Part shown: positions 2,092 through 61,884 of the stretch, in pieces
Layout: the number at the start of each line of letters is the position of its first letter
Numbering within the stretch: position 1 is the first letter of the stretch
Assembly: GCA_964644965.1 (NCBI GenBank)
Contig: CAZXYN010000005.1
Location: forward strand, 9,759 to 73,758
DNA: 64,000 nucleotides
Origin: an uncultured Candidatus Saccharibacteria bacterium
Lineage (GTDB): Bacteria > Patescibacteriota > Saccharimonadia > Saccharimonadales > JACDBH01
Direction of reading: 5' to 3'
The notes under the pieces: model-generated
What the model was told of the DNA's origin: nothing
What the model saw: only the letters and a program-made list of their open reading frames with translations
Databases searched by the model: none
Made by a program: the position numbers and the translations under genes

Positions 2092-5019
2092 CTAATTACC
2101 TGTTGTTGACCAGTGCCAATTCTCTGAGGGCAGGTTTTTTAAGCCATAGCTAGCGGCGTTAGCAACCAACCAATCCCAACAAACCCTTGTGGACGGTCTT
2201 TCTCTTAAGTTAATAAAGCCAATACCATTACAAATTAAGTCTATAGCTAAACCTCTCTCGTGAAAAGATGTGCCTGGTTTGGCTGTTGGCGGGCTACAGC
2301 TGTTGGCGGACATCTCATATATGGCGTAGTTGCTTGTACCACAGTTTTGTCGCCGTAATGCAATCTGTCTTGCGGGGTCGCGCCAACCTCCACCGGTAAA
2401 AGTAATCCCACTAGCTTTTGCGTCATTTACTAGTCTCTCAATAGTGCCAGCAATACAATTATGAACCAATATACCTTGCACATCAGTTATCTCTTCTCTA
2501 CCAACTGGCGCTGATGGGCATTGACTCGTATCAAGGGATCCGGATGTATTAGTGTTTGCCGGTTGAGTGCCAAGACCAAGTTCAGTACACGCCTGCGCAT
2601 TATCATCATAGCAGTCCATCGTTCTGGCTATAGAGTCGTCCATAACGAAAAGAGCAGTTCGGATCCAATCGGGACTTAGATCGCCACAATTAGCCCCATT
2701 ATACTCGTTAGACAAAGGGTTTATCTCTTTGTCTAAAAGCGTTGTCCGTAACTGGCTTCCTTCACCCACTATTTCTACACCGAAACAATTCTTTACCCTG
2801 TCTTCGTCTATGCTACCTCTGTTATCAATAACCCACTTTACGTTTTCAGGGGAGTCATAGTTTGGATCATCGACAATGCTAGCAGGCATTGATACCAACG
2901 GGAATCCCCAGTCGTAAGTCGCTGATTGAGCATGGGCACTAGGCGATGCAATGGATAAGAGGTTGGATACTGTGCTAATAGGAGACTTTAATAGACCGGG
3001 GACTATTGAGCCGAAACTATTGCCAACACCAACGAGTCCGTGGCTCAGGGCCGGACGCATTGTGGCCATTGCGAGAGACCGTTTTTCCTGGGGGTTGAAT
3101 AATCTGTCGAACAAGTCCTTTTGTCTGAACTCCGCAATTTCTTGCTCGTTGATCTGGTTTAGTAGTGCCGTCTCGTCGCCGCTACTTAAAGGTACCCCAC
3201 CCATCGCAGCAGCATTTATATTGCTAGACATTCTAGCTGCATACGCGAGGCAGTTTCCGTATGCCTCTGCGTTTAATACCTCGATATCTTCTGGTTTGTC
3301 GCTTTCACCCGAATCAAACTCCACACCACATACGTCGGTAACCCTGCCCCTTACCTGTCCCTCTACAACTTCACCGAGAATCCTACTTGCTGCATAAGAG
3401 ATGGTACCGGCCAGGACGGCCTGTGCAGCTACCCTGCCCACGGCTCCGGCTGTTGTGGTTCCACCGGTAACTACGCCCCCTACAACCCCTGCAACAGTAA
3501 GCGTAGCACCGGCCGCAAGGCCGACAACTCTAGCGACTGGATTGCACGCAAAATCAGAGACACCATCAGCAACATCAGCAGCAGTAGCCCCGTCGTATCC
3601 AAGAGCACTCACTAGGCCTGAAATGCTGCTGCCGGTTGTAGTGAAAGCAGATCTGGCACCAATATCTATATCCGTACCAACACCCGATCCTCCGTTCGTC
3701 AATGCGTTGACAGACTTCGCACCCCATACGCTACGTCCATCAGCATCTCTAAAGTCAGCTATCACGTCCCCTGCTAACTGGGCGGTGAGATTCTGTCCCG
3801 ACTGGAATTGTGATGCCGCACTTTGGGTTTGGATTGATCTTATCATGGCGGGTGTGACTATAGTTGCATAGTAGACACCTGGTACTATGCCCGCAATATC
3901 TTTGACCGTGCACATAACTCCCTGAATTGCAACTGCAGCCCCAGCCGTTTTCATTAGTCCTGACCCGGCCTTGCTTCTCAGGTCGCTGCGTGCACTGGAT
4001 CTTCTCTGGTCAACCTCAACACTCTTTCTGGATCTCTCTGCATCAGCCTGCTTCCTTTCGCGCCTTGCTAGCACGGCATTATCTATGCGTCGCCCAACCG
4101 ATTCGCTAGCTCGGGATACAGGGTGAAATAGACTCGGTAATCTCAATGTTTTGCTAAACAATCTTTTGTTCATTGATACGGCAACTTTAGGATTAAGCCT
4201 TACGGTCGCCCTTCCACCACCAGCGTGGTGTGCTAAACCTTTTTTGATATTGTCAAGTTCGCTACCCTTAAAGTCCGACAACCTAAAGCTAAGGGATGTG
4301 TCGGTGTTGCCGATAGTGCCCACGCGGACTTTTTCTGCATCAATTCCAAATGCCCTGGCTATGTTTAGGCGGGTGTGTGTTGGCGTAGGGCCTCTGAGGG
4401 GGGAGTTAGCAGGTGGGTCAAACGTGACCGTTACTCTAGAGTTTCCCGTTACTCGTCCTGTTGTCTCTGTAAGCTTTATACCATGCTGCTGATCTAGTCT
4501 ATCCAGCATTCCGCCAAATACCCTATTTTGAACTGTTCCCAGGCGCGAACGTGACAGCATAACCCTATCATCGGCGTTCTTAAACAGGGATCGGTAAAGC
4601 ATCCTGTTTATACGTCTGTTTATGATATTTGTGTGAGCGCTTTCGTGTTTACCCAAAGCAGCATCAAGTTGGAATACTTGCATTGGACCCGTCGTCAAGA
4701 TTGTGAGTGCTCCAAGGCCTCCGCCGATAACAGTTCCTACGATACTACCAATAACTACCTGTTTTTTAGTTACGCGGGAGCGGCTCTTTTTCTTCTTTTC
4801 ATCATCACGGAACGGGATTTCATCATCAGAATCTCCTGTCTTTTCATCCAGTTTGGCACGTTCGGCCATATCATCGGTGACGGCACGGTCTTCCATAGCC
4901 TGCTCCTCGGCAGGGTTAATACCAGTGATCTGATTTAGATCACCCGTTCTTTTATCAAGCTTATCAGCTTCAATTTCCTCTGGTCGAGTTTTGGTTTGTT
5001 GGTCGTCGTAGACTGCCAT
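2092..5019 (-). CDS. large membrane protein with C-terminal M15/VanY-type D-Ala-D-Ala peptidase domain, T4SS-associated
   Basis: 975 aa; acidic N-terminus, TM VVIGSIVGTVIGGGLGALTILTTG, Gly/Ala/Val-rich hydrophobic segment mid-protein; C-terminus has SFHERGLAID (SxHxxGxAxD) and ENWHWS motifs of VanY/M15 peptidases; directly abuts neighbouring genes. Confidence 0.8.
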   Translation of the reverse strand: MAVYDDQQTKTRPEEIEADKLDKRTGDLNQITGINPAEEQAMEDRAVTDDMAERAKLDEKTGDSDDEIPFRDDEKKKKSRSRVTKKQVVIGSIVGTVIGGGLGALTILTTGPMQVFQLDAALGKHESAHTNIINRRINRMLYRSLFKNADDRVMLSRSRLGTVQNRVFGGMLDRLDQQHGIKLTETTGRVTGNSRVTVTFDPPANSPLRGPTPTHTRLNIARAFGIDAEKVRVGTIGNTDTSLSFRLSDFKGSELDNIKKGLAHHAGGGRATVRLNPKVAVSMNKRLFSKTLRLPSLFHPVSRASESVGRRIDNAVLARRERKQADAERSRKSVEVDQRRSSARSDLRSKAGSGLMKTAGAAVAIQGVMCTVKDIAGIVPGVYYATIVTPAMIRSIQTQSAASQFQSGQNLTAQLAGDVIADFRDADGRSVWGAKSVNALTNGGSGVGTDIDIGARSAFTTTGSSISGLVSALGYDGATAADVADGVSDFACNPVARVVGLAAGATLTVAGVVGGVVTGGTTTAGAVGRVAAQAVLAGTISYAASRILGEVVEGQVRGRVTDVCGVEFDSGESDKPEDIEVLNAEAYGNCLAYAARMSSNINAAAMGGVPLSSGDETALLNQINEQEIAEFRQKDLFDRLFNPQEKRSLAMATMRPALSHGLVGVGNSFGSIVPGLLKSPISTVSNLLSIASPSAHAQSATYDWGFPLVSMPASIVDDPNYDSPENVKWVIDNRGSIDEDRVKNCFGVEIVGEGSQLRTTLLDKEINPLSNEYNGANCGDLSPDWIRTALFVMDDSIARTMDCYDDNAQACTELGLGTQPANTNTSGSLDTSQCPSAPVGREEITDVQGILVHNCIAGTIERLVNDAKASGITFTGGGWRDPARQIALRRQNCGTSNYAIYEMSANSCSPPTAKPGTSFHERGLAIDLICNGIGFINLRERPSTRVCWDWLVANAASYGLKNLPSENWHWSTTGN

Positions 5020-17515: not shown

Positions 17516-17717
17516 AAGGTTTGTCTCCCCTCCACTTAACTCTTGTTACACTTGATCCGAAAACATTTGATTTTTTATCTTGCTACTAGTATAGCTAGAG
17601 ATGCAACAGCGTGCAAAGGTTTTGTAACCTTATTTACAACATAATATATACAACAATAGCTTTTGTCTGATATAAAAAGATAAAAATATAGTTCAGTTGG
17701 TGGGAGACAGGTGTCTC

Positions 17718-18392
17718 ATGCGTTTGATCGAACAATTTTTCAGAATCGTCGCACCATCCAACTGTTTGATGTGTCGTACCGAAGGTAGCTTACTGTGCGC
17801 CTGGTGTATTGAAGATGCTTTGCCGCAGCATCAGCCTCGTTGCTATCGCTGCAACGCATTGACCTCAGAGAGTTCAATCTGTGCAAACTGCAAGCGAAAA
17901 ACAGCTCTCAGAAGTCTGTGGATACGTACCGAATACTCTGATACAGCCAAGAACCTGGTTCATATGATGAAATTTAAGTACTCAGGCGAAGCAGCTGACA
18001 TTCTGGCCACCGAACTGGTGAACACAATCCCTGCCCTGTCGCCAGAAACAATCGTTGTAGCAGTACCTACAATCACATCGCATGTACGTCAGCGCGGATT
18101 TGACCACACCAAACGCATTGTTGCACGGATTTCTGCCATGACCCCATATTCTAGTCAGCAAGTGCTTGTTCGGATGGGTCAGCATCGCCAGGTTGGTTCT
18201 AGTCGAAAGCAGCGTTTGACCGAAGTAACTAATAGTTTTCGGGTCAAAAGCCCATTTGTGGTCAAAAATTGCCCCGTTGTGCTGGTAGATGACGTGCTGA
18301 CCACTGGTGCAACGCTTGAGGCAGCAGCCAAGGCTCTACGACAAGCTGGCGCTTCGCGGGTAGACGCGGTGGTTTTCGCCCGCGCCCGGTAG
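17718..18392 (+). CDS. comF: ComF-family phosphoribosyltransferase-domain protein
   Basis: N-terminal Cys pairs (CLMCRT...CAWC, CYRC...CANC) and C-terminal PRTase motif VVLVDDVLTTGATL; ATG 17718 chosen, TTG 17697/GTG 17700 are in-frame alternatives. Confidence 0.8.
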   Translation: MRLIEQFFRIVAPSNCLMCRTEGSLLCAWCIEDALPQHQPRCYRCNALTSESSICANCKRKTALRSLWIRTEYSDTAKNLVHMMKFKYSGEAADILATELVNTIPALSPETIVVAVPTITSHVRQRGFDHTKRIVARISAMTPYSSQQVLVRMGQHRQVGSSRKQRLTEVTNSFRVKSPFVVKNCPVVLVDDVLTTGATLEAAAKALRQAGASRVDAVVFARAR

Positions 18393-18458
18393 TAGACTTT
18401 CGTGCTGCCAGCAAAAGCTGGCTATTGGATGGGAGGTTCACGAAAGCTCACTACTGGG
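18385..18458. repeat. hairpin repeat element, copy 2 (GTAGTGAG/TCTACTAC family)
   Basis: Arms CCCGGTAGTAGACTTTCGTG (18385-18404) and CACGAAAGCTCACTACTGGG (18439-18458); internal hairpin GCCAGC-aaaa-GCTGGC; left arm contains the comF stop codon TAG 18390-18392. Confidence 0.75.
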
Positions 18459-18669
18459 CCGCGCCAAATAGTCTTTTATTAACAGAGATAAACTGTTATA
18501 ATTCGTATCTGTTAACAACTGAATTGCAGCTAATAACCAAAATTCCAAACCAAGTCGCCTAGGCGACTGTTCGGGATTTTGAGAGGAGGAAGCTTGCTGA
18601 GATTTCTAATGTTGCCGGATAAACTTGTTTTGTCGGCGGCAAGGAAATCGCAGCATTGCATTCCGACGA

Positions 18670-39995: not shown

Positions 39996-40077
39996 CCCAG
40001 TAGTGAGCCTTCGTGTCCATCCGCCAAAGGCGGATGCATGGTTCGCCTGGCGAACCGCACGAAGATCTACTACTGGG
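39996..40077 (+). repeat. hairpin repeat element, copy 3 (GTAGTGAG/TCTACTAC family)
   Basis: Arms CCCAGTAGTGAGCCTTCGTG (39996-40015) and CACGAAGATCTACTACTGGG (40058-40077); two internal hairpins TCCGCC-aaa-GGCGGA and GGTTCGCC-tg-GCGAACC; 33 nt after groEL stop. Confidence 0.8.
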
Positions 40078-48181: not shown

Positions 48182-48454
48182 CTAGAGTTTCTTTGGGTCA
48201 ATACCGGCGCTTAGAAGCAAGGTAGAGTTGAGATGATAGATTTTCTCTGTACCATCTTTGCGTTCAACCAAAATCCCAGCATCGACAAGCTTGCCAAAAT
48301 GATGACTCATGGCTGGCTGTGATAGGGAAGACACCGTACTGACCTCTGAACAGCTCTTGCTATCATTGTGATCGCGCACTAGGGCCCTAACAATATCTAG
48401 CCGAGTCTTATCAGAAAGTGCTTTGAAAATATTTAGAGTATCTACTGCAGGCAT
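48182..48454 (-). CDS. ArsR/SmtB-family HTH transcriptional regulator
   Basis: FKALSDKTRLDIVRAL...SQPAMSHHFGKLVDAGIL. Confidence 0.8.
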   Translation of the reverse strand: MPAVDTLNIFKALSDKTRLDIVRALVRDHNDSKSCSEVSTVSSLSQPAMSHHFGKLVDAGILVERKDGTEKIYHLNSTLLLSAGIDPKKL

Positions 48455-48580
48455 ACTCCGTATTATACACTAATCTAAATATTTAAATATGTAAATACTT
48501 AAATATATATTGCCAGACGCTGACTTCTGTAAATAATCAGGTGATAACATCAAAATAGCGTATAATACCACCAGATATGG

Positions 48581-48903
48581 ATCATGTAGTGAGCCCTTGA
48601 TGAGCATTATGTTCTACGTATATATACTTCAATCAGAAGATAAAAAGCGACTTTATATTGGTAAGACCCAAAATCTTAATAGACGGGTTAAAAAACATAA
48701 TGCCGAACAAAATGCATCTAACAAAGCTTATACGCCTTGGACTTTGATTTTCTACGAGGCATACACTAACTATGATGATGCAACTAGACGTGAAAAATAT
48801 CTTAAAACTACTCAAGGACACCAGGCTATCAGAAGAATGCTCAGCAAACATTTAGAGAAGTATAATGAGATGCATTTTGAGCATCAAGGATCTACTACGT
48901 GAT
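48581..48903 (+). mobile_element. GIY-YIG gene cassette with short terminal inverted repeats, copy 1
   Basis: Left ATCATGTAGTGAG (48581-48593), right TCTACTACGTGAT (48891-48903); paralogous to 61193-61514 at DNA and protein level including non-coding left end. Confidence 0.6.
48609..48902 (+). CDS. GIY-YIG nuclease superfamily protein (UPF0213-like)
   Basis: MFYVYILQSEDKKRLYIGKTQNLNRRVKKHN...REKYLKT; start set by alignment with paralog at 61220. Confidence 0.85.
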   Translation: MFYVYILQSEDKKRLYIGKTQNLNRRVKKHNAEQNASNKAYTPWTLIFYEAYTNYDDATRREKYLKTTQGHQAIRRMLSKHLEKYNEMHFEHQGSTT

Positions 48904-50557
48904 GGAACAGATGAGAGAGTTGATCGCTAACCGAATAAGCCAGCTGTACGGCCAAGAAGTGCCAATAGTGTTTACGCGTCCGGACGAACAGTTCGGCGAT
49001 TTTTCGACCAATGTTGCCATGCAGCTTGCTAGTAAGGTTGGCTCTAATCCGCGAGAGATTGCCCAATCTATTATCGACAATCTGTCTCACGACGATATTG
49101 CCAAGGCCGAAGTCGCTGGTCCAGGATTTATCAACCTGACTCTAAGCGACCAAGCACTTACAGACCTAATAGCTGCTGAACCCACCAAAATTTTTGCCGA
49201 AGAATCAGTTGTGATTGAGACCAATAACCCGAATCCGTTCAAGGCCATGCACATTGGTCATGCCTTTAACGCAATCGTGGCTGATACGCTTGCCAATCTG
49301 ATAGAAGCGGCCGGTGCACACACCTACCGCGTCAGCTATCATGGTGATGTTGGTCTTCATGTTGGCAAGAGTATGTATAGTTTGCTGCGCTACGTAGACG
49401 GCGAGCCAAACAAGCTGCTAGACGTTCCAGAGGAAGAGCGCAATAGCTTCATGTCGCGGATGTATGCCGAGGGTTCTGCTGCTTATAAAGAGGACGGTTC
49501 GCTGGACAGCGGAGCCAGGGCAGAGATTGATGAGCTTGCCAGGCAATCATTTACCCGCGAGGATGCTACCTATGCTGCTGTCTATGAAATTTGTAGAGAT
49601 TGGAGCTTTGAACAGATTGATACAAATGTTGCGCGGCTAGGTAACAAGCCAGTGGAGCGTAGGTTCCTAGAGAGTGATGCCGAGCATAGAGGCGTAGAAA
49701 TTGTCAAAAAGAATACCCCAGCTGTGTTCAAAGAAAGCGATGGTGCATTAATATTCGAGGGTAGTAAACATGGCACGTTCGACAATGCTTTTGTTAGCGC
49801 ACGCGGTACAGGGCTGTATGCTTCGCGTGATCTTGGTTTAATCCAGCTCAAGAATGAACAGTATCACCCAGATAAGAGTTATATCGTCACAGCAGAGGAG
49901 CAGCGGGATTATTTCAAGGGAGTAATTGCGGCTGCTGAATTATGCATGCCTGATCAAAAGGGCGTCACCATCAACATCCCAACCGGCACAGTCAAGCTAA
50001 CAACTGGCAAGATGAGCTCGCGTGATGGCGACGTGGTAGAGATTGGCTGGTTGTTTGACCAAGTAGCTAGCGCCATCAAAGAGCGCGGTGGTTCGGCCAG
50101 TGATCAAGACATTGCCGGCGCACTGCGCTATCAGTTCTTGCAGGTGCGGATTGGTAGTGACGTGGTGTTTGACATCGAAAATTCGGTTAGTATTCACGGC
50201 AACTCCGGACCGTATTTACAGTACGCACACGCAAGGGCTCGCAGTATTTTGCGCAAGGCGCAAGAAGTTGAAAGTGAAAAGTTGAAAGTCGAAAGTTTGC
50301 AAAAGGCCGAACGCAGTCTGGTCCGAAAAATCGGCGAGTACAACGAGGTTGTAGGGAGAGCAGCTGACGAGCTAATGCCGCATCACATCTGTCATTATCT
50401 GCATGAGCTGTCTCAGAATTTTAATTCGTTCTACGAACACAACCGAGTAATTGGTGACGCGCGCGAGGGTACTCGTCTAAAAATCGTAGAGCTTTATGCA
50501 GACACACTAAAGCGCGGTCTAGAGCTACTAGGTATTAACGCCCCAGAACAAATGTAG
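48899..50557 (+). CDS. argS: arginine--tRNA ligase
   Basis: 552 aa; HIGH-type MHIGHAFN, anticodon-binding C-terminus ending in M; start GTGATG overlaps GIY-YIG stop. Confidence 0.95.
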   Translation: MMEQMRELIANRISQLYGQEVPIVFTRPDEQFGDFSTNVAMQLASKVGSNPREIAQSIIDNLSHDDIAKAEVAGPGFINLTLSDQALTDLIAAEPTKIFAEESVVIETNNPNPFKAMHIGHAFNAIVADTLANLIEAAGAHTYRVSYHGDVGLHVGKSMYSLLRYVDGEPNKLLDVPEEERNSFMSRMYAEGSAAYKEDGSLDSGARAEIDELARQSFTREDATYAAVYEICRDWSFEQIDTNVARLGNKPVERRFLESDAEHRGVEIVKKNTPAVFKESDGALIFEGSKHGTFDNAFVSARGTGLYASRDLGLIQLKNEQYHPDKSYIVTAEEQRDYFKGVIAAAELCMPDQKGVTINIPTGTVKLTTGKMSSRDGDVVEIGWLFDQVASAIKERGGSASDQDIAGALRYQFLQVRIGSDVVFDIENSVSIHGNSGPYLQYAHARARSILRKAQEVESEKLKVESLQKAERSLVRKIGEYNEVVGRAADELMPHHICHYLHELSQNFNSFYEHNRVIGDAREGTRLKIVELYADTLKRGLELLGINAPEQM

Positions 50558-61082: not shown

Positions 61083-61192
61083 CTGAAACTCCTATTCAGT
61101 TACTCGAATTACCTAAAATTATACACCCGTGGTACTAAAAAGTCTAATTGTCAAACCTATGAATAAATTATCTGTATAATAGGGAGCAATGA

Positions 61193-61514
61193 ATCATGTA
61201 GTGAGGTTCTGATTGCATTATGTTCTATGTCTATATTCTTCATTCAGATGTAAGGCAGAGACTTTACATTGGGAAGACAAATAATCTCAAGCGTCGAGTT
61301 AAAGAACATAATGACGGTCAAAATTTATCTACGAAAGCCTACAGACCCTGGACTCTGGCGTTTTATGAAGCTTACATTAATGCTGATGATGCAAGTCGTC
61401 GGGAAAAGTATCTGAAAACAACTCAGGGTCGGCAAACAATACGAAAGATGCTACGCTCTCACTTGGAAAACTACAAAAGTATAAATTTTGAGTATCAGGA
61501 CTCTACTACATGAT
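61193..61514 (+). mobile_element. GIY-YIG gene cassette with short terminal inverted repeats, copy 2
   Basis: Left ATCATGTAGTGAG (61193-61205), right CTCTACTACATGAT (61501-61514); 10-bp perfect core ATCATGTAGT/ACTACATGAT. Confidence 0.6.
61220..61513 (+). CDS. GIY-YIG nuclease superfamily protein (UPF0213-like), paralog
   Basis: MFYVYILHSDVRQRLYIGKTNNLKRRVKEHN...REKYLKT; roughly two-thirds identical by eye to 48609-48902 product. Confidence 0.85.
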   Translation: MFYVYILHSDVRQRLYIGKTNNLKRRVKEHNDGQNLSTKAYRPWTLAFYEAYINADDASRREKYLKTTQGRQTIRKMLRSHLENYKSINFEYQDSTT

Positions 61515-61884
61515 GAACCACAAAGCTGTAGAAGAATATATATTGACCATGCCAAATTCGTGGCTGGATTACCCATTTGGTAAAGAGGCAGCAGTATACA
61601 AAGTTCGAAGTTCTAAGGACAAAGGACAAAGTGAGGGTAAGATGTTTGCGCTGATTGCCGAAGGATCTAAGCCTGTACGAATCAGCCTGAAATGTGATCC
61701 GCAACTCGCCAAATTACTTCGTGAAAAGTACGAGACAGTCATGGAAGGCTACCATCTGAACAAGAAACACTGGAATACAATCCTGCTGACAGGGCAGCTG
61801 CCGTGGGAAGAGGTTCAAGGACTTATTTTGCATAGCTACATCTTGGTCACAGAGGGTAGCGACACTCACCAACCTACTGCGTAA
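61510..61884 (+). CDS. MmcQ/YjbR-family protein
   Basis: YPFGKEAAVYKV...KMFALI...ISLKCDPQLAKLLREKY...GYHLNKKHWNTI. Confidence 0.75.
   Translation: MMNHKAVEEYILTMPNSWLDYPFGKEAAVYKVRSSKDKGQSEGKMFALIAEGSKPVRISLKCDPQLAKLLREKYETVMEGYHLNKKHWNTILLTGQLPWEEVQGLILHSYILVTEGSDTHQPTA

Follow-up and report, generated by a model that had tools for sequence, protein, structure and literature searches.

The locus described here raises the question of why a small GIY-YIG nuclease gene, enclosed by an inverted repeat, should end exactly where the gene argS begins, and why a closely similar arrangement should stand in front of a second gene in the same stretch of DNA. This stretch, which we refer to as “the window”, comprises 64,000 nucleotides (nt) from an uncultured Candidatus Saccharibacteria bacterium (contig CAZXYN010000005.1, positions 9,759 to 73,758). 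We have found that both loci are insertions of a discrete mobile element of 319-320 bp, flanked by a target duplication that contains the start codon of the host gene; of this we are practically certain. The best overall explanation, which we consider reasonably probable, is a tiny GIY-YIG element that adopts a single-strand fold and inserts at start codons, with mobilisation by its own nuclease and a translational relay into the host gene as the proposed parts of its life cycle.

At the first locus (locus A), the GIY-YIG open reading frame (ORF) encodes 97 amino acids (aa; Pfam PF01541, E = 8e-19) and lies between two 13-mers, ATCATGTAGTGAG at 48581-48593 and TCTACTACGTGAT(G) at 48891-48903(4); a TATAAT box precedes the left repeat by 14 nt, and the stop codon TGA at 48900-48902 overlaps a GTGATG, with argS next (Pfam domains Arg_tRNA_synt_N, tRNA-synt_1d and DALR_1). 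At the second locus (locus B), another ORF-bearing copy is located at ~61193-61514, 5' of a YjbR-family gene. These are the only two ORF-bearing copies in the 64-kb window, next to two ORF-less miniature copies; both ORFs are intact, and the two proteins are 70% identical. A sequence-only reading of the window had pointed to this arrangement (48561-48903, with the second copy at ~61193-61514), and every feature that it named is found in its place; its proposal that a discrete mobile unit lands at the starts of genes is borne out by the empty sites, by the defined ends and by the further copies, which are present at other genes in many genomes.

Empty sites and boundaries of the element

ArgS orthologues have been retrieved and their contigs have been read for the presence or absence of the cassette, and the same has been done for the gene at locus B. 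Relatives with the same gene order and without the cassette exist for both genes. One of them (L082) shares the gene order of the window (DUF1801, PIG-L, FMN reductase, ArsR, argS, MscL), lacks the GIY-YIG gene and reads gcgTATAATataacagatATGGAACAGATACGG at its argS junction; two others (L083 and L084) are alike, so that the empty argS site takes the form TATAAT-N7-9-ATGGAACAG. The empty site, ...AGATATGGAACAG..., thus corresponds to the filled site ...AGATATGGA(element)ATGGAACAG, and the junction in the window reads gcgTATAATaccaccagatATGGA(TCATGTAGTGAG...TCTACTACGTG)ATGGAACAGATGAGA, with the element in parentheses. At locus B, three relatives (L085, L086 and L087) keep the same gene order around an empty site, which in L087 reads TATAATaagaggcaATGAATCATAAA, and the filled site of the window reads TATAATagggagcaATGAA(TCATGTAG...CTACATG)ATGAACCACAAA.

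The comparison of empty and filled sites gives a target duplication of ATGGA at argS and of ATGAA at the yjbR-like gene, i.e. 5 bp, or 4 bp (TGGA is possible at argS). Across the family, the flanking direct repeats agree at a mean of 4.07 out of 5 positions, versus 2.57 +/- 0.16 in mismatched pairings (maximum 3.03 in 1000); duplications without an ATG also occur, namely CCGCG at the first miniature copy of the window and GGAGG at one further locus (L013). The alignment of loci A and B with their flanks agrees with these boundaries: the similarity passes the ORF on its 5' side, beginning ~28 nt upstream at ATGRATCATG (ATGRATCATGTAGTGAG), and stops at ACTACRTGATG.

Since the TATAAT box and the argS ATG are both present at the empty sites, both are host sequence. 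The right repeat had been read as the source of the argS start codon, but ATG 48902 is the duplicated codon of the host; likewise, the cassette had been thought to drive the gene, but the TATAAT box is the host argS promoter, and the element brings none of its own. As read from the junctions, what the element contributes is no more than one in-frame codon immediately upstream of the host start, GTG at locus A and ATG at locus B. An ancestral conserved leader has been considered as an explanation of both loci and rejected, as empty sites exist.

Mechanical ORF calling lengthens argS to GTG 48899 and the yjbR-like gene to ATG 61510, by one codon each; both of these codons belong to the right end of the element, as the empty sites show, and the native starts are 48902 and 61513.

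A possible footprint of the element has been noted at the start of contig CAZXJN010000007.1 (L081, positions 1-60), 5' of argS, where the sequence TATAATAG-TCTACGTG-ATAGAACAA looks like what is left of the right end of the element (TCTAC..GTG), joined to a -10 box; ATA stands in place of the ATG, the called start of argS is the GTG of element origin, and the contig ends 30 nt upstream. The sequence may be a deletion footprint.

The GIY-YIG protein

The Pfam GIY-YIG profile matches the proteins of copies A and B with 68.1 and 63.2 bits, respectively, against a cut-off of 22.6. The invariant columns of the family are Y3, Y5, Y16, G18, R26, H30, N31 and E50, and the catalytic Tyr, Arg, His and Glu are intact. 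According to Pfam and to the AF2 model (pLDDT 86.9), the protein is a single domain of 97 aa with the beta-beta-alpha-beta-alpha order of the GIY-YIG fold, with no other domain and no DNA-binding domain. A fold search of the Protein Data Bank (PDB) returned GIY-YIG domains for all of its top matches, the nearest being UPF0213 and Slx1, at a modest similarity (E = 1.5e-6; TM 0.5-0.64), while NCBIfam gave weak, sub-threshold matches only. Judged by its sequence, the enzyme belongs to no recognised transposase class (DDE, HUH/Y1, serine or tyrosine).

The tail of the protein, ..FEYQGSTT, is encoded by the 3' strand of a helix that is described below (P3) and by the right arm of the inverted repeat; it is the least confident part of the model, with pLDDT below 60, and it is therefore probably the nucleic acid that keeps it conserved.

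The element family and its predicted fold

Close relatives of the protein number in the hundreds and come almost entirely from Patescibacteria; the family profile reaches 17,651 cluster representatives at E <= 1e-3 and 3,934 at E <= 1e-10. We have fetched 80 genomic loci and have assessed the arms over 82 copies; paired arms are found at ~58 loci, and the covariation has been calculated on 51 distinct arm pairs.

The inverted pair that had been noted at locus A is real and recurs in ~58 of the 82 homologous copies, but the pairing arms that enclose the ORF are 21-22 bp long (48581-48601 with 48883-48903 at copy A), not 13; the 13-mer alone, with up to two mismatches, matches three times in the window against 1.3 expected, which is weak evidence at the scale of the window. 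The arms pair into a helix, which we refer to as “P1”, built of an outer stem of 4-6 bp, the paired motif GTAGT/ACTAC, a tandem mismatch of G.T and A.C, and an inner stem of 9-10 bp. The core of P1 is GTAGTGA...TCTACTAC; the tandem G.T/A.C mismatch is always kept, and the sequence of the inner stem varies by lineage with its complementarity retained. In the 51 distinct arm pairs, 88% of the cells are paired and both sides change in 13 of the 22 pairs; the covariation score is 0.489, versus 0.224 in shuffles (none of 500 reaches it) and at most 0.173 in slid registers. For copy A, the minimum-energy folds of DNA (z = -4.2) and of RNA (z = -3.2) alike include P1.

The order of the two mismatches divides the loci into type 1 (n = 39) and type 2 (n = 19), the top strand of one type being the bottom strand of the other. 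The pair beside the core follows the same division: it is T.G in nine type 1 loci and C.A in two, while it is C.A in eleven type 2 loci and T.G in one. This wobble-pair pattern by type indicates that the hairpin possesses an intrinsic strand polarity that does not follow the direction of transcription, which argues that the conserved asymmetry is read at the level of DNA rather than in mRNA.

Two further helices are predicted inside P1, both of them involving the codons of the nuclease. In helix P2, the start region of the nuclease gene (ATTATGTTC with two to four upstream bases) pairs with the stretch that encodes the invariant E-H-N motif, where 48 of 58 loci use GAACATAAT; GC forms the outermost pair in 35 sequences, CG in 10 and AU in 3. 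In helix P3, the codons right after E-H-N pair with the 3' end of the ORF, in a segment that stops 4-5 nt short of the right arm. Of 58 loci, 38 have a perfect helix of 8 bp or more at the corresponding relative position, its length being matched by none of 200 shuffles in nearly all of them, and compensatory variants occur (CAAAATGCATCT/AGATGCATTTTG, TCAAAATTTAT/ATAAATTTTGA and GTTAAATTTTTC/GAAAAATTTAAC). Together, P1, P2 and P3 are predicted to form a three-way junction with linkers of 4-6 nt.

A scan of positions 48300-49100 with the Rfam covariance models gave matches at chance level only (E of 2.8 or more). A kink-turn or box C/D motif, represented by TGATGA in copy A, has been considered and set aside, as it is not conserved in the other loci.

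Insertion at start codons

The position of the element relative to host genes is the same in most of the family. A long ORF begins at an ATG 1-6 nt past the right arm in ~48 of 58 loci, and an ATG is located just outside the left arm in 47 of 58. The bases that are duplicated after the ATG vary by gene (GA, AA, AAGT, CG), and the register of the duplication varies by subfamily (TATG, ATGA or ATGRA). A scan of metagenomes with TCATGTAGTGAGNNNNTGAT gave 101 matches, only four of which are real elements; all four have ATGGA on both sides.

Of the 47 loci, 33 have a -10-like box, TANNNT, at 4-13 nt upstream of the left ATG, compared with 17% of ATGs in general; the box frequently reads TGnTAnAAT, and a spacing of 6-7 nt to the left ATG is the commonest. 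Among the 62 gene starts of the window, ~20 have a -10-like box 4-13 nt upstream and ~18 have a Shine-Dalgarno-like motif. The element thus probably occupies a class of genes that is leaderless or near-leaderless, as far as the promoter spacing tells.

Between the left ATG and the nuclease gene, a mini-ORF of seven codons is the commonest arrangement (19 of 44 loci); the stop of the mini-ORF is most often found 7-8 nt before the nuclease ATG. In copy A, the TGA of the mini-ORF overlaps the in-frame ATG 48600 (TGATG), with the GIY-YIG ATG 48609 lying 8 nt on. The nuclease stop codon overlaps the host ATG in copy A (TGATG) and lies 14-24 nt before it in other lineages. A left ATG that shares the frame of the nuclease ORF has been rejected as the usual arrangement, being present in only 3 of the 47 loci.

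Exceptions to the start-codon position are the duplicated Shine-Dalgarno GGAGG (L013), two loci at the 3' end of a gene (L011 and L015) and a few intergenic loci. In L011 and L015 (~2960-3300), the element stands at the 3' end of the upstream gene (...IEFAK*), between copies of an 8-nt direct repeat, GTTYGCCA, and the native sequence, CCAAGTAG, resembles the left end of the element itself; this hints that target choice may involve likeness to the terminus of the element.

Miniature copies and the source of mobility

Scanning with the arm signature has revealed ORF-less copies of 35-135 nt in many loci and genomes. The short ones fold as P1 around two hairpins, which is the layout of the full element, with z from -5 to -12. 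The first miniature copy of the window replaces the last codon of a 231-aa ORF (17697-18392): the GTAG of the element provides a new stop, giving ...ARAR* instead of ...ARAK*, and the old gene end is still readable downstream. The second is located between the stop codon of a 549-aa ORF (39963) and a terminator-like hairpin, with no clear duplication. One other locus (L040, 2800-3300 and 5460-5630) has two miniatures of ~120 nt, 2.6 kb apart and ~88% identical, whose similarity begins at the left arm without extension into the left flank; one of them, of 123 nt, abuts a full element and the second adjoins a plain hairpin of ~35 nt, CCGGTAGTAGTCCGCCAACTGGCGGATCACTACTAGG, a clustering that resembles that of repetitive extragenic palindromic (REP) sequences.

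Miniatures of this abundance are what would be expected if the hairpins were repeats similar to REPs or to MITEs (miniature transposable elements with inverted repeats), moved by another enzyme such as a REP-associated tyrosine transposase (RAYT) or by host functions, with the GIY-YIG gene as a passenger or a secondary invader of the loop. The arms do contain GTAG, the tag of RAYT-associated REPs (PMC3733652), and GIY-YIG enzymes are not known transposases. The GTAG of the element, however, is no unpaired tag, as it pairs with CTAC inside the stem in every locus, and the P2 and P3 helices are formed from codons of the ORF with compensatory changes, which shows that gene and fold have co-evolved; moreover, the layout with the ORF in the loop is kept across very distant Patescibacteria, and the Ssn nucleases introduced below are a direct precedent for a small GIY-YIG enzyme that is specific to a hairpin repeat. 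We consider mobility supplied by another enzyme unlikely, and return to the element as a unit of gene and fold.

Spread between genomes

The argS start is also occupied in a second genome (L001), where the element DNA is 90.3% identical to copy A and the two nuclease genes differ at 5, 5 and 21 sites of codon positions 1, 2 and 3, respectively (97 codons). The argS genes of the two genomes are 64-67% identical as DNA and 67.5% as protein, the upstream flanks are unrelated and unalignable, and the flanks overall are 50-67% identical. The start of a dnaG-like gene is likewise occupied in several genomes, with the nuclease always more similar than the host protein. The element, which is less diverged than its host, therefore postdates the host split and has come to the same site on more than one occasion; this points to horizontal spread of the element, which is widespread in Patescibacteria. 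No relatives have been found in viral contigs.

Recurrence at the same site, at argS in two genomes and at the dnaG-like gene in several, together with the polymorphism of presence and absence, would also suit a free-standing homing endonuclease gene that spreads only by cutting empty alleles of one site, followed by recombination, without transposition. Against homing as the only mode of spread, the target duplications differ in sequence at different genes, the host genes are unrelated and number in the dozens, the element has terminal inverted repeats and miniature copies, and its nuclease lacks the DNA-binding domain of I-TevI or the Seg enzymes. Homing alone is, in our judgement, distinctly improbable, while homing to favoured sites may take place in addition to transposition.

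Proposed mechanism

The mechanism that we propose for the GIY-YIG element draws on the Ssn nucleases, single-domain GIY-YIG proteins of ~94 aa that bind a hairpin repeat in single-stranded DNA (ssDNA) and cut beside it; cutting persists when the halves of the hairpin are on separate strands, and the repeat stands on both sides of the ssn genes (Chenal et al. 2025, PMC11893778). By analogy, the nuclease of the element would recognise the folded hairpin or junction in ssDNA, would nick at its base and would thereby mobilise the element; to such a nuclease-driven single-strand mechanism we give an even chance. The preference for start codons could arise from ssDNA that is exposed at +1 to +5 in the open promoter complex and, alternatively or additionally, from selection for sites that are harmless and expressed.

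After insertion, one copy of the ATG would stay by the host promoter, with the -10 box 6-10 nt upstream, and would open the mini-ORF of ~7 codons through the left arm, while the other copy would remain the start of the host gene directly past the right arm. Ribosomes could then be relayed from the host promoter through the mini-ORF and the GIY-YIG gene to the host gene, by way of the TGATG stop/start overlaps; since the nuclease start lies within P2 and the first bases of the host ATG lie within P1, it may take ribosomes that arrive from upstream to open each start in turn. The coupling of expression through the TGATG overlap, which the sequence-only reading had also suggested, is plausible, and the arguments for and against a full translational relay seem to us about equally balanced.

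A stronger proposal, which we hold only tentatively and regard as doubtful, is that the element represents a new class of autonomous DNA transposon, the smallest known at ~320 bp, in which a 97-aa GIY-YIG enzyme acts on a single-stranded three-way junction, integrates at +1 to +5 of leaderless genes, takes over the host promoter and start codon, and passes the ribosomes on.

Several points weigh against these proposals. We know of no GIY-YIG enzyme that carries out strand transfer, and the role of the protein in moving the element is one that we infer by analogy; a duplication of 4-5 bp is not the usual product of a hairpin-guided single-strand (“peel and paste”) mechanism. Copies A and B, at only 70% identity, show no sign of very recent movement in this genome. 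With respect to the fold, P3 is missing in ~20 of 58 loci, and P2 is nearly invariant, so that its covariation support is thin and its conservation may partly reflect codon preference in AT-rich genomes. With respect to the target, ~10 of 58 loci are not at an ATG, the spacing of the -10 box is the one line of evidence for leaderless expression, and the exact ends of the element are ambiguous by 1 nt.

The same conserved features could be seen as those of a fold that acts mainly as RNA, i.e. a structured 5' leader with a role in the control or processing of the host transcript, for instance through cleavage of P1 or occlusion of the start codon, with mobility being secondary. The orientation of the element is always that of the host gene, and its place is downstream of the host promoter; P1 and P2 of the RNA fold occlude the start codons of host and nuclease, and the 7-codon mini-ORF and the stop/start overlaps are conserved. 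Yet the polarity of the wobble pairs and the order of the core mismatch flip relative to transcription in one third of the loci, miniature copies occur at gene 3' ends and in either orientation, there is no match to an Rfam family, and the host genes do well without the element at the empty sites; we therefore consider a primarily RNA-level function very unlikely.

A domesticated host system of the Ssn type, no longer mobile and restricting, for example, incoming ssDNA, is scarcely credible: such a role has been shown for Ssn in Neisseria and the domestication of an NTS-ssnA-NTS unit has been proposed (PMC11893778), and copies A and B have kept intact ORFs while diverging to 70% identity, but a genome region contains several diverged copies of the ORF instead of a single one, the insertion is polymorphic between close relatives, the element is far less diverged than the host, and decayed copies exist, such as one with a frameshifted ORF (L036).

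Relation to known systems

Compared with systems already described, the mobile GIY-YIG element is closest in function, by analogy, to the Ssn family, represented by SsnA of Neisseria meningitidis with its NTS/SRM repeats. Both have a single-domain GIY-YIG protein of ~94-100 aa (the size range that characterises the Ssn family is ~94-150 aa), a gene bracketed by hairpin-forming sequences, and the same hairpin elsewhere in the genome without the gene (for the element, two copies in the window and many in other loci), and the tolerance of Ssn for split hairpin halves corresponds to the geometry of the element. The differences are that the gene of the element is located inside one split hairpin, whereas the Ssn gene is located between two complete hairpins; that the repeat core is the paired GTAGTGA/TCTACTAC, whereas the SRM is CGTC-tagged; and that the predicted three-way junction is built partly from coding sequence, unlike in Ssn. 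The SRM pattern (HGTCWY...RNCYNB) has no match on either strand of the 64-kb window, against 0.17 expected. Target duplications, empty sites and start-codon targeting are seen for the element and are not reported for Ssn, whose mobility has never been shown.

REPs and their bacterial interspersed mosaic elements (BIMEs) with RAYT (TnpA_REP), as well as IS200/IS605, share with the element short palindromic repeats that flank one small nuclease gene, an action that is thought to be on ssDNA hairpins, a GTAG motif, and non-autonomous copies that outnumber the gene. Their enzyme is a HUH/Y1 transposase, whereas that of the element is GIY-YIG; the GTAG of RAYT-associated REPs is an unpaired tag at one end of the palindrome (PMC3733652), whereas that of the element is base-paired; IS200/IS605 make no target duplication, whereas the element duplicates 4-5 bp; and the element is about half the size of IS200.

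The Seg proteins of phage T4 and I-TevI resemble the element in their GIY-YIG domain, their intergenic or gene-boundary position, their polymorphism and their recurrence at the same site in diverged genomes; the element differs in having no joined DNA-binding domain and in having inverted-repeat ends, duplications, miniatures and many unrelated targets. MITEs such as the Correia elements of Neisseria and the Rickettsia palindromic elements are likewise small palindromes with short duplications, are co-transcribed with their neighbours and can alter gene ends with the function kept, as in the first miniature of the window; they have no coding capacity and depend on unrelated transposases, and none of them is, to our knowledge, known to target start codons. 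Slx1 and UPF0213 (YhbQ-like) are the best sequence and fold matches, and the cutting of branched DNA by Slx1 would fit a junction-shaped substrate, although Slx1 needs Slx4 and extra domains, and UPF0213 proteins are encoded by single-copy host genes without known repeats.

The element therefore has the attributes of insertion sequences and MITEs, i.e. terminal inverted repeats, a duplication verified by empty sites, copies at different loci and non-autonomous derivatives, except for a transposase of a recognised class, its sole ORF being the GIY-YIG nuclease. It appears to be a variant of the small GIY-YIG nucleases with hairpin repeats, with a substantial chance of constituting a new transposon class. 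A literature search of incomplete coverage has returned no account of a GIY-YIG gene placed within a split hairpin, of such units with target duplications, or of start-codon targeting.

If the nuclease does move the element, Ssn-type ssDNA nucleases would be linked to real transposition, which has so far only been hypothesised, and GIY-YIG would become one of the few transposase chemistries. The element is extremely compact, and the sequence that codes for its protein doubles as a structural scaffold; its strategy for being harmless yet expressed is unusual: insertion at a start codon, duplication of that codon and use of the host promoter. In practical terms, start sites are easily mis-called beside such elements (GTG 48899 and ATG 61510 being insertion artefacts), multi-copy elements of this type probably break metagenome assemblies, and a family of small nucleases specified by hairpins, with many natural specificities, could serve work with ssDNA.

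Feature coordinates and variant copies

Table 1. Positions of the elements, their helices and the adjoining host features in the window.
Feature	Positions	Strand	Remark
Miniature copy 1, 74 bp	18385..18458	.	Direct repeat CCGCG at 18380-18384 and 18459-18463; DNA fold z = -5.9 and -5.2
Miniature copy 2, 82 bp	39996..40077	.	P1 enclosing two hairpins; DNA fold z = -7.8 and -8.5
Host argS -10 box TATAAT	48561..48566	+	10 nt upstream of left ATG; same relative place in empty sites L082, L083, L084
Left target-site duplication copy ATGGA (original argS ATG + 2 nt)	48577..48581	+	Empty versus filled site comparison
Mini-ORF MDHVVSP*, 7 codons	48577..48600	+	From left ATG through left arm; read from sequence
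Element copy A, 320 bp	48582..48901	+	Ends from empty-site comparison; 1-nt shift possible if duplication is 4 bp TGGA
Helix P1 left arm ATCATGTAGTGAGCCCTTGAT	48581..48601	+	Pairing and covariation
Helix P1 right arm ATCAAGGATCTACTACGTGAT	48883..48903	+	Codes for protein tail ..QGSTT*; covers first two bases of argS ATG
GIY-YIG nuclease ORF, 97 aa	48609..48902	+	Possible other start ATG 48600 (MSIMFYV...)
Helix P2 5' strand GCATTATGTT, holds GIY-YIG start codon	48604..48613	+	Predicted to pair with 48694-48703
Helix P2 3' strand AACATAATGC, codons of invariant K/E-H-N motif	48694..48703	+	Predicted to pair with 48604-48613
Helix P3 5' strand CAAAATGCATCT	48708..48719	+	Predicted to pair with 48868-48879
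Helix P3 3' strand AGATGCATTTTG	48868..48879	+	Predicted to pair with 48708-48719
Right target-site duplication copy ATGGA, working argS start	48902..48906	+	argS 48902-50557
Host -10 box TATAAT of yjbR-like gene	61175..61180	+	Conserved at empty sites L085-L087
Left target-site duplication copy ATGAA	61189..61193	+	Opens mini-ORF MNHVVRF* (61189-61212)
Element copy B, 319 bp	61194..61512	+	GIY-YIG ORF 61220-61513; arms 61193-61213 and 61494-61514
Copy B helices	P2 61216-61225 with 61304-61313; P3 61318-61328 with 61481-61491	+	Pairing
Right target-site duplication copy ATGAA, native yjbR-like start	61513..61517	+	Gene 61513-61884; empty sites L085, L086, L087

Variant copies have been noted at three of the fetched loci: the frameshifted, decayed copy mentioned above is located at 3000-3290 of L036, a small hairpin of the same type is nested in the 3' end of the ORF at ~3270-3303 of L050, and an extra hairpin displaces the right arm at 2979-3357 of L014.

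A group I intron context, raised by weak matches to TIGR01453, has been rejected, as there is nothing intron-like at loci A and B; introns and tRNA or transfer-messenger RNA (tmRNA) genes accompany only a different subfamily (L024, L030, L058, L059, L064, L075, L079 and L080), which encodes the same small GIY-YIG protein without GTAGT arms. In this armless subfamily, the ORF is located at ~3001 (1542 in L079), with tRNA or tmRNA genes 80-150 nt upstream of it and other local hairpins on either side, and one of its members (L064) has a group I intron at 1023-1235 on the minus strand.

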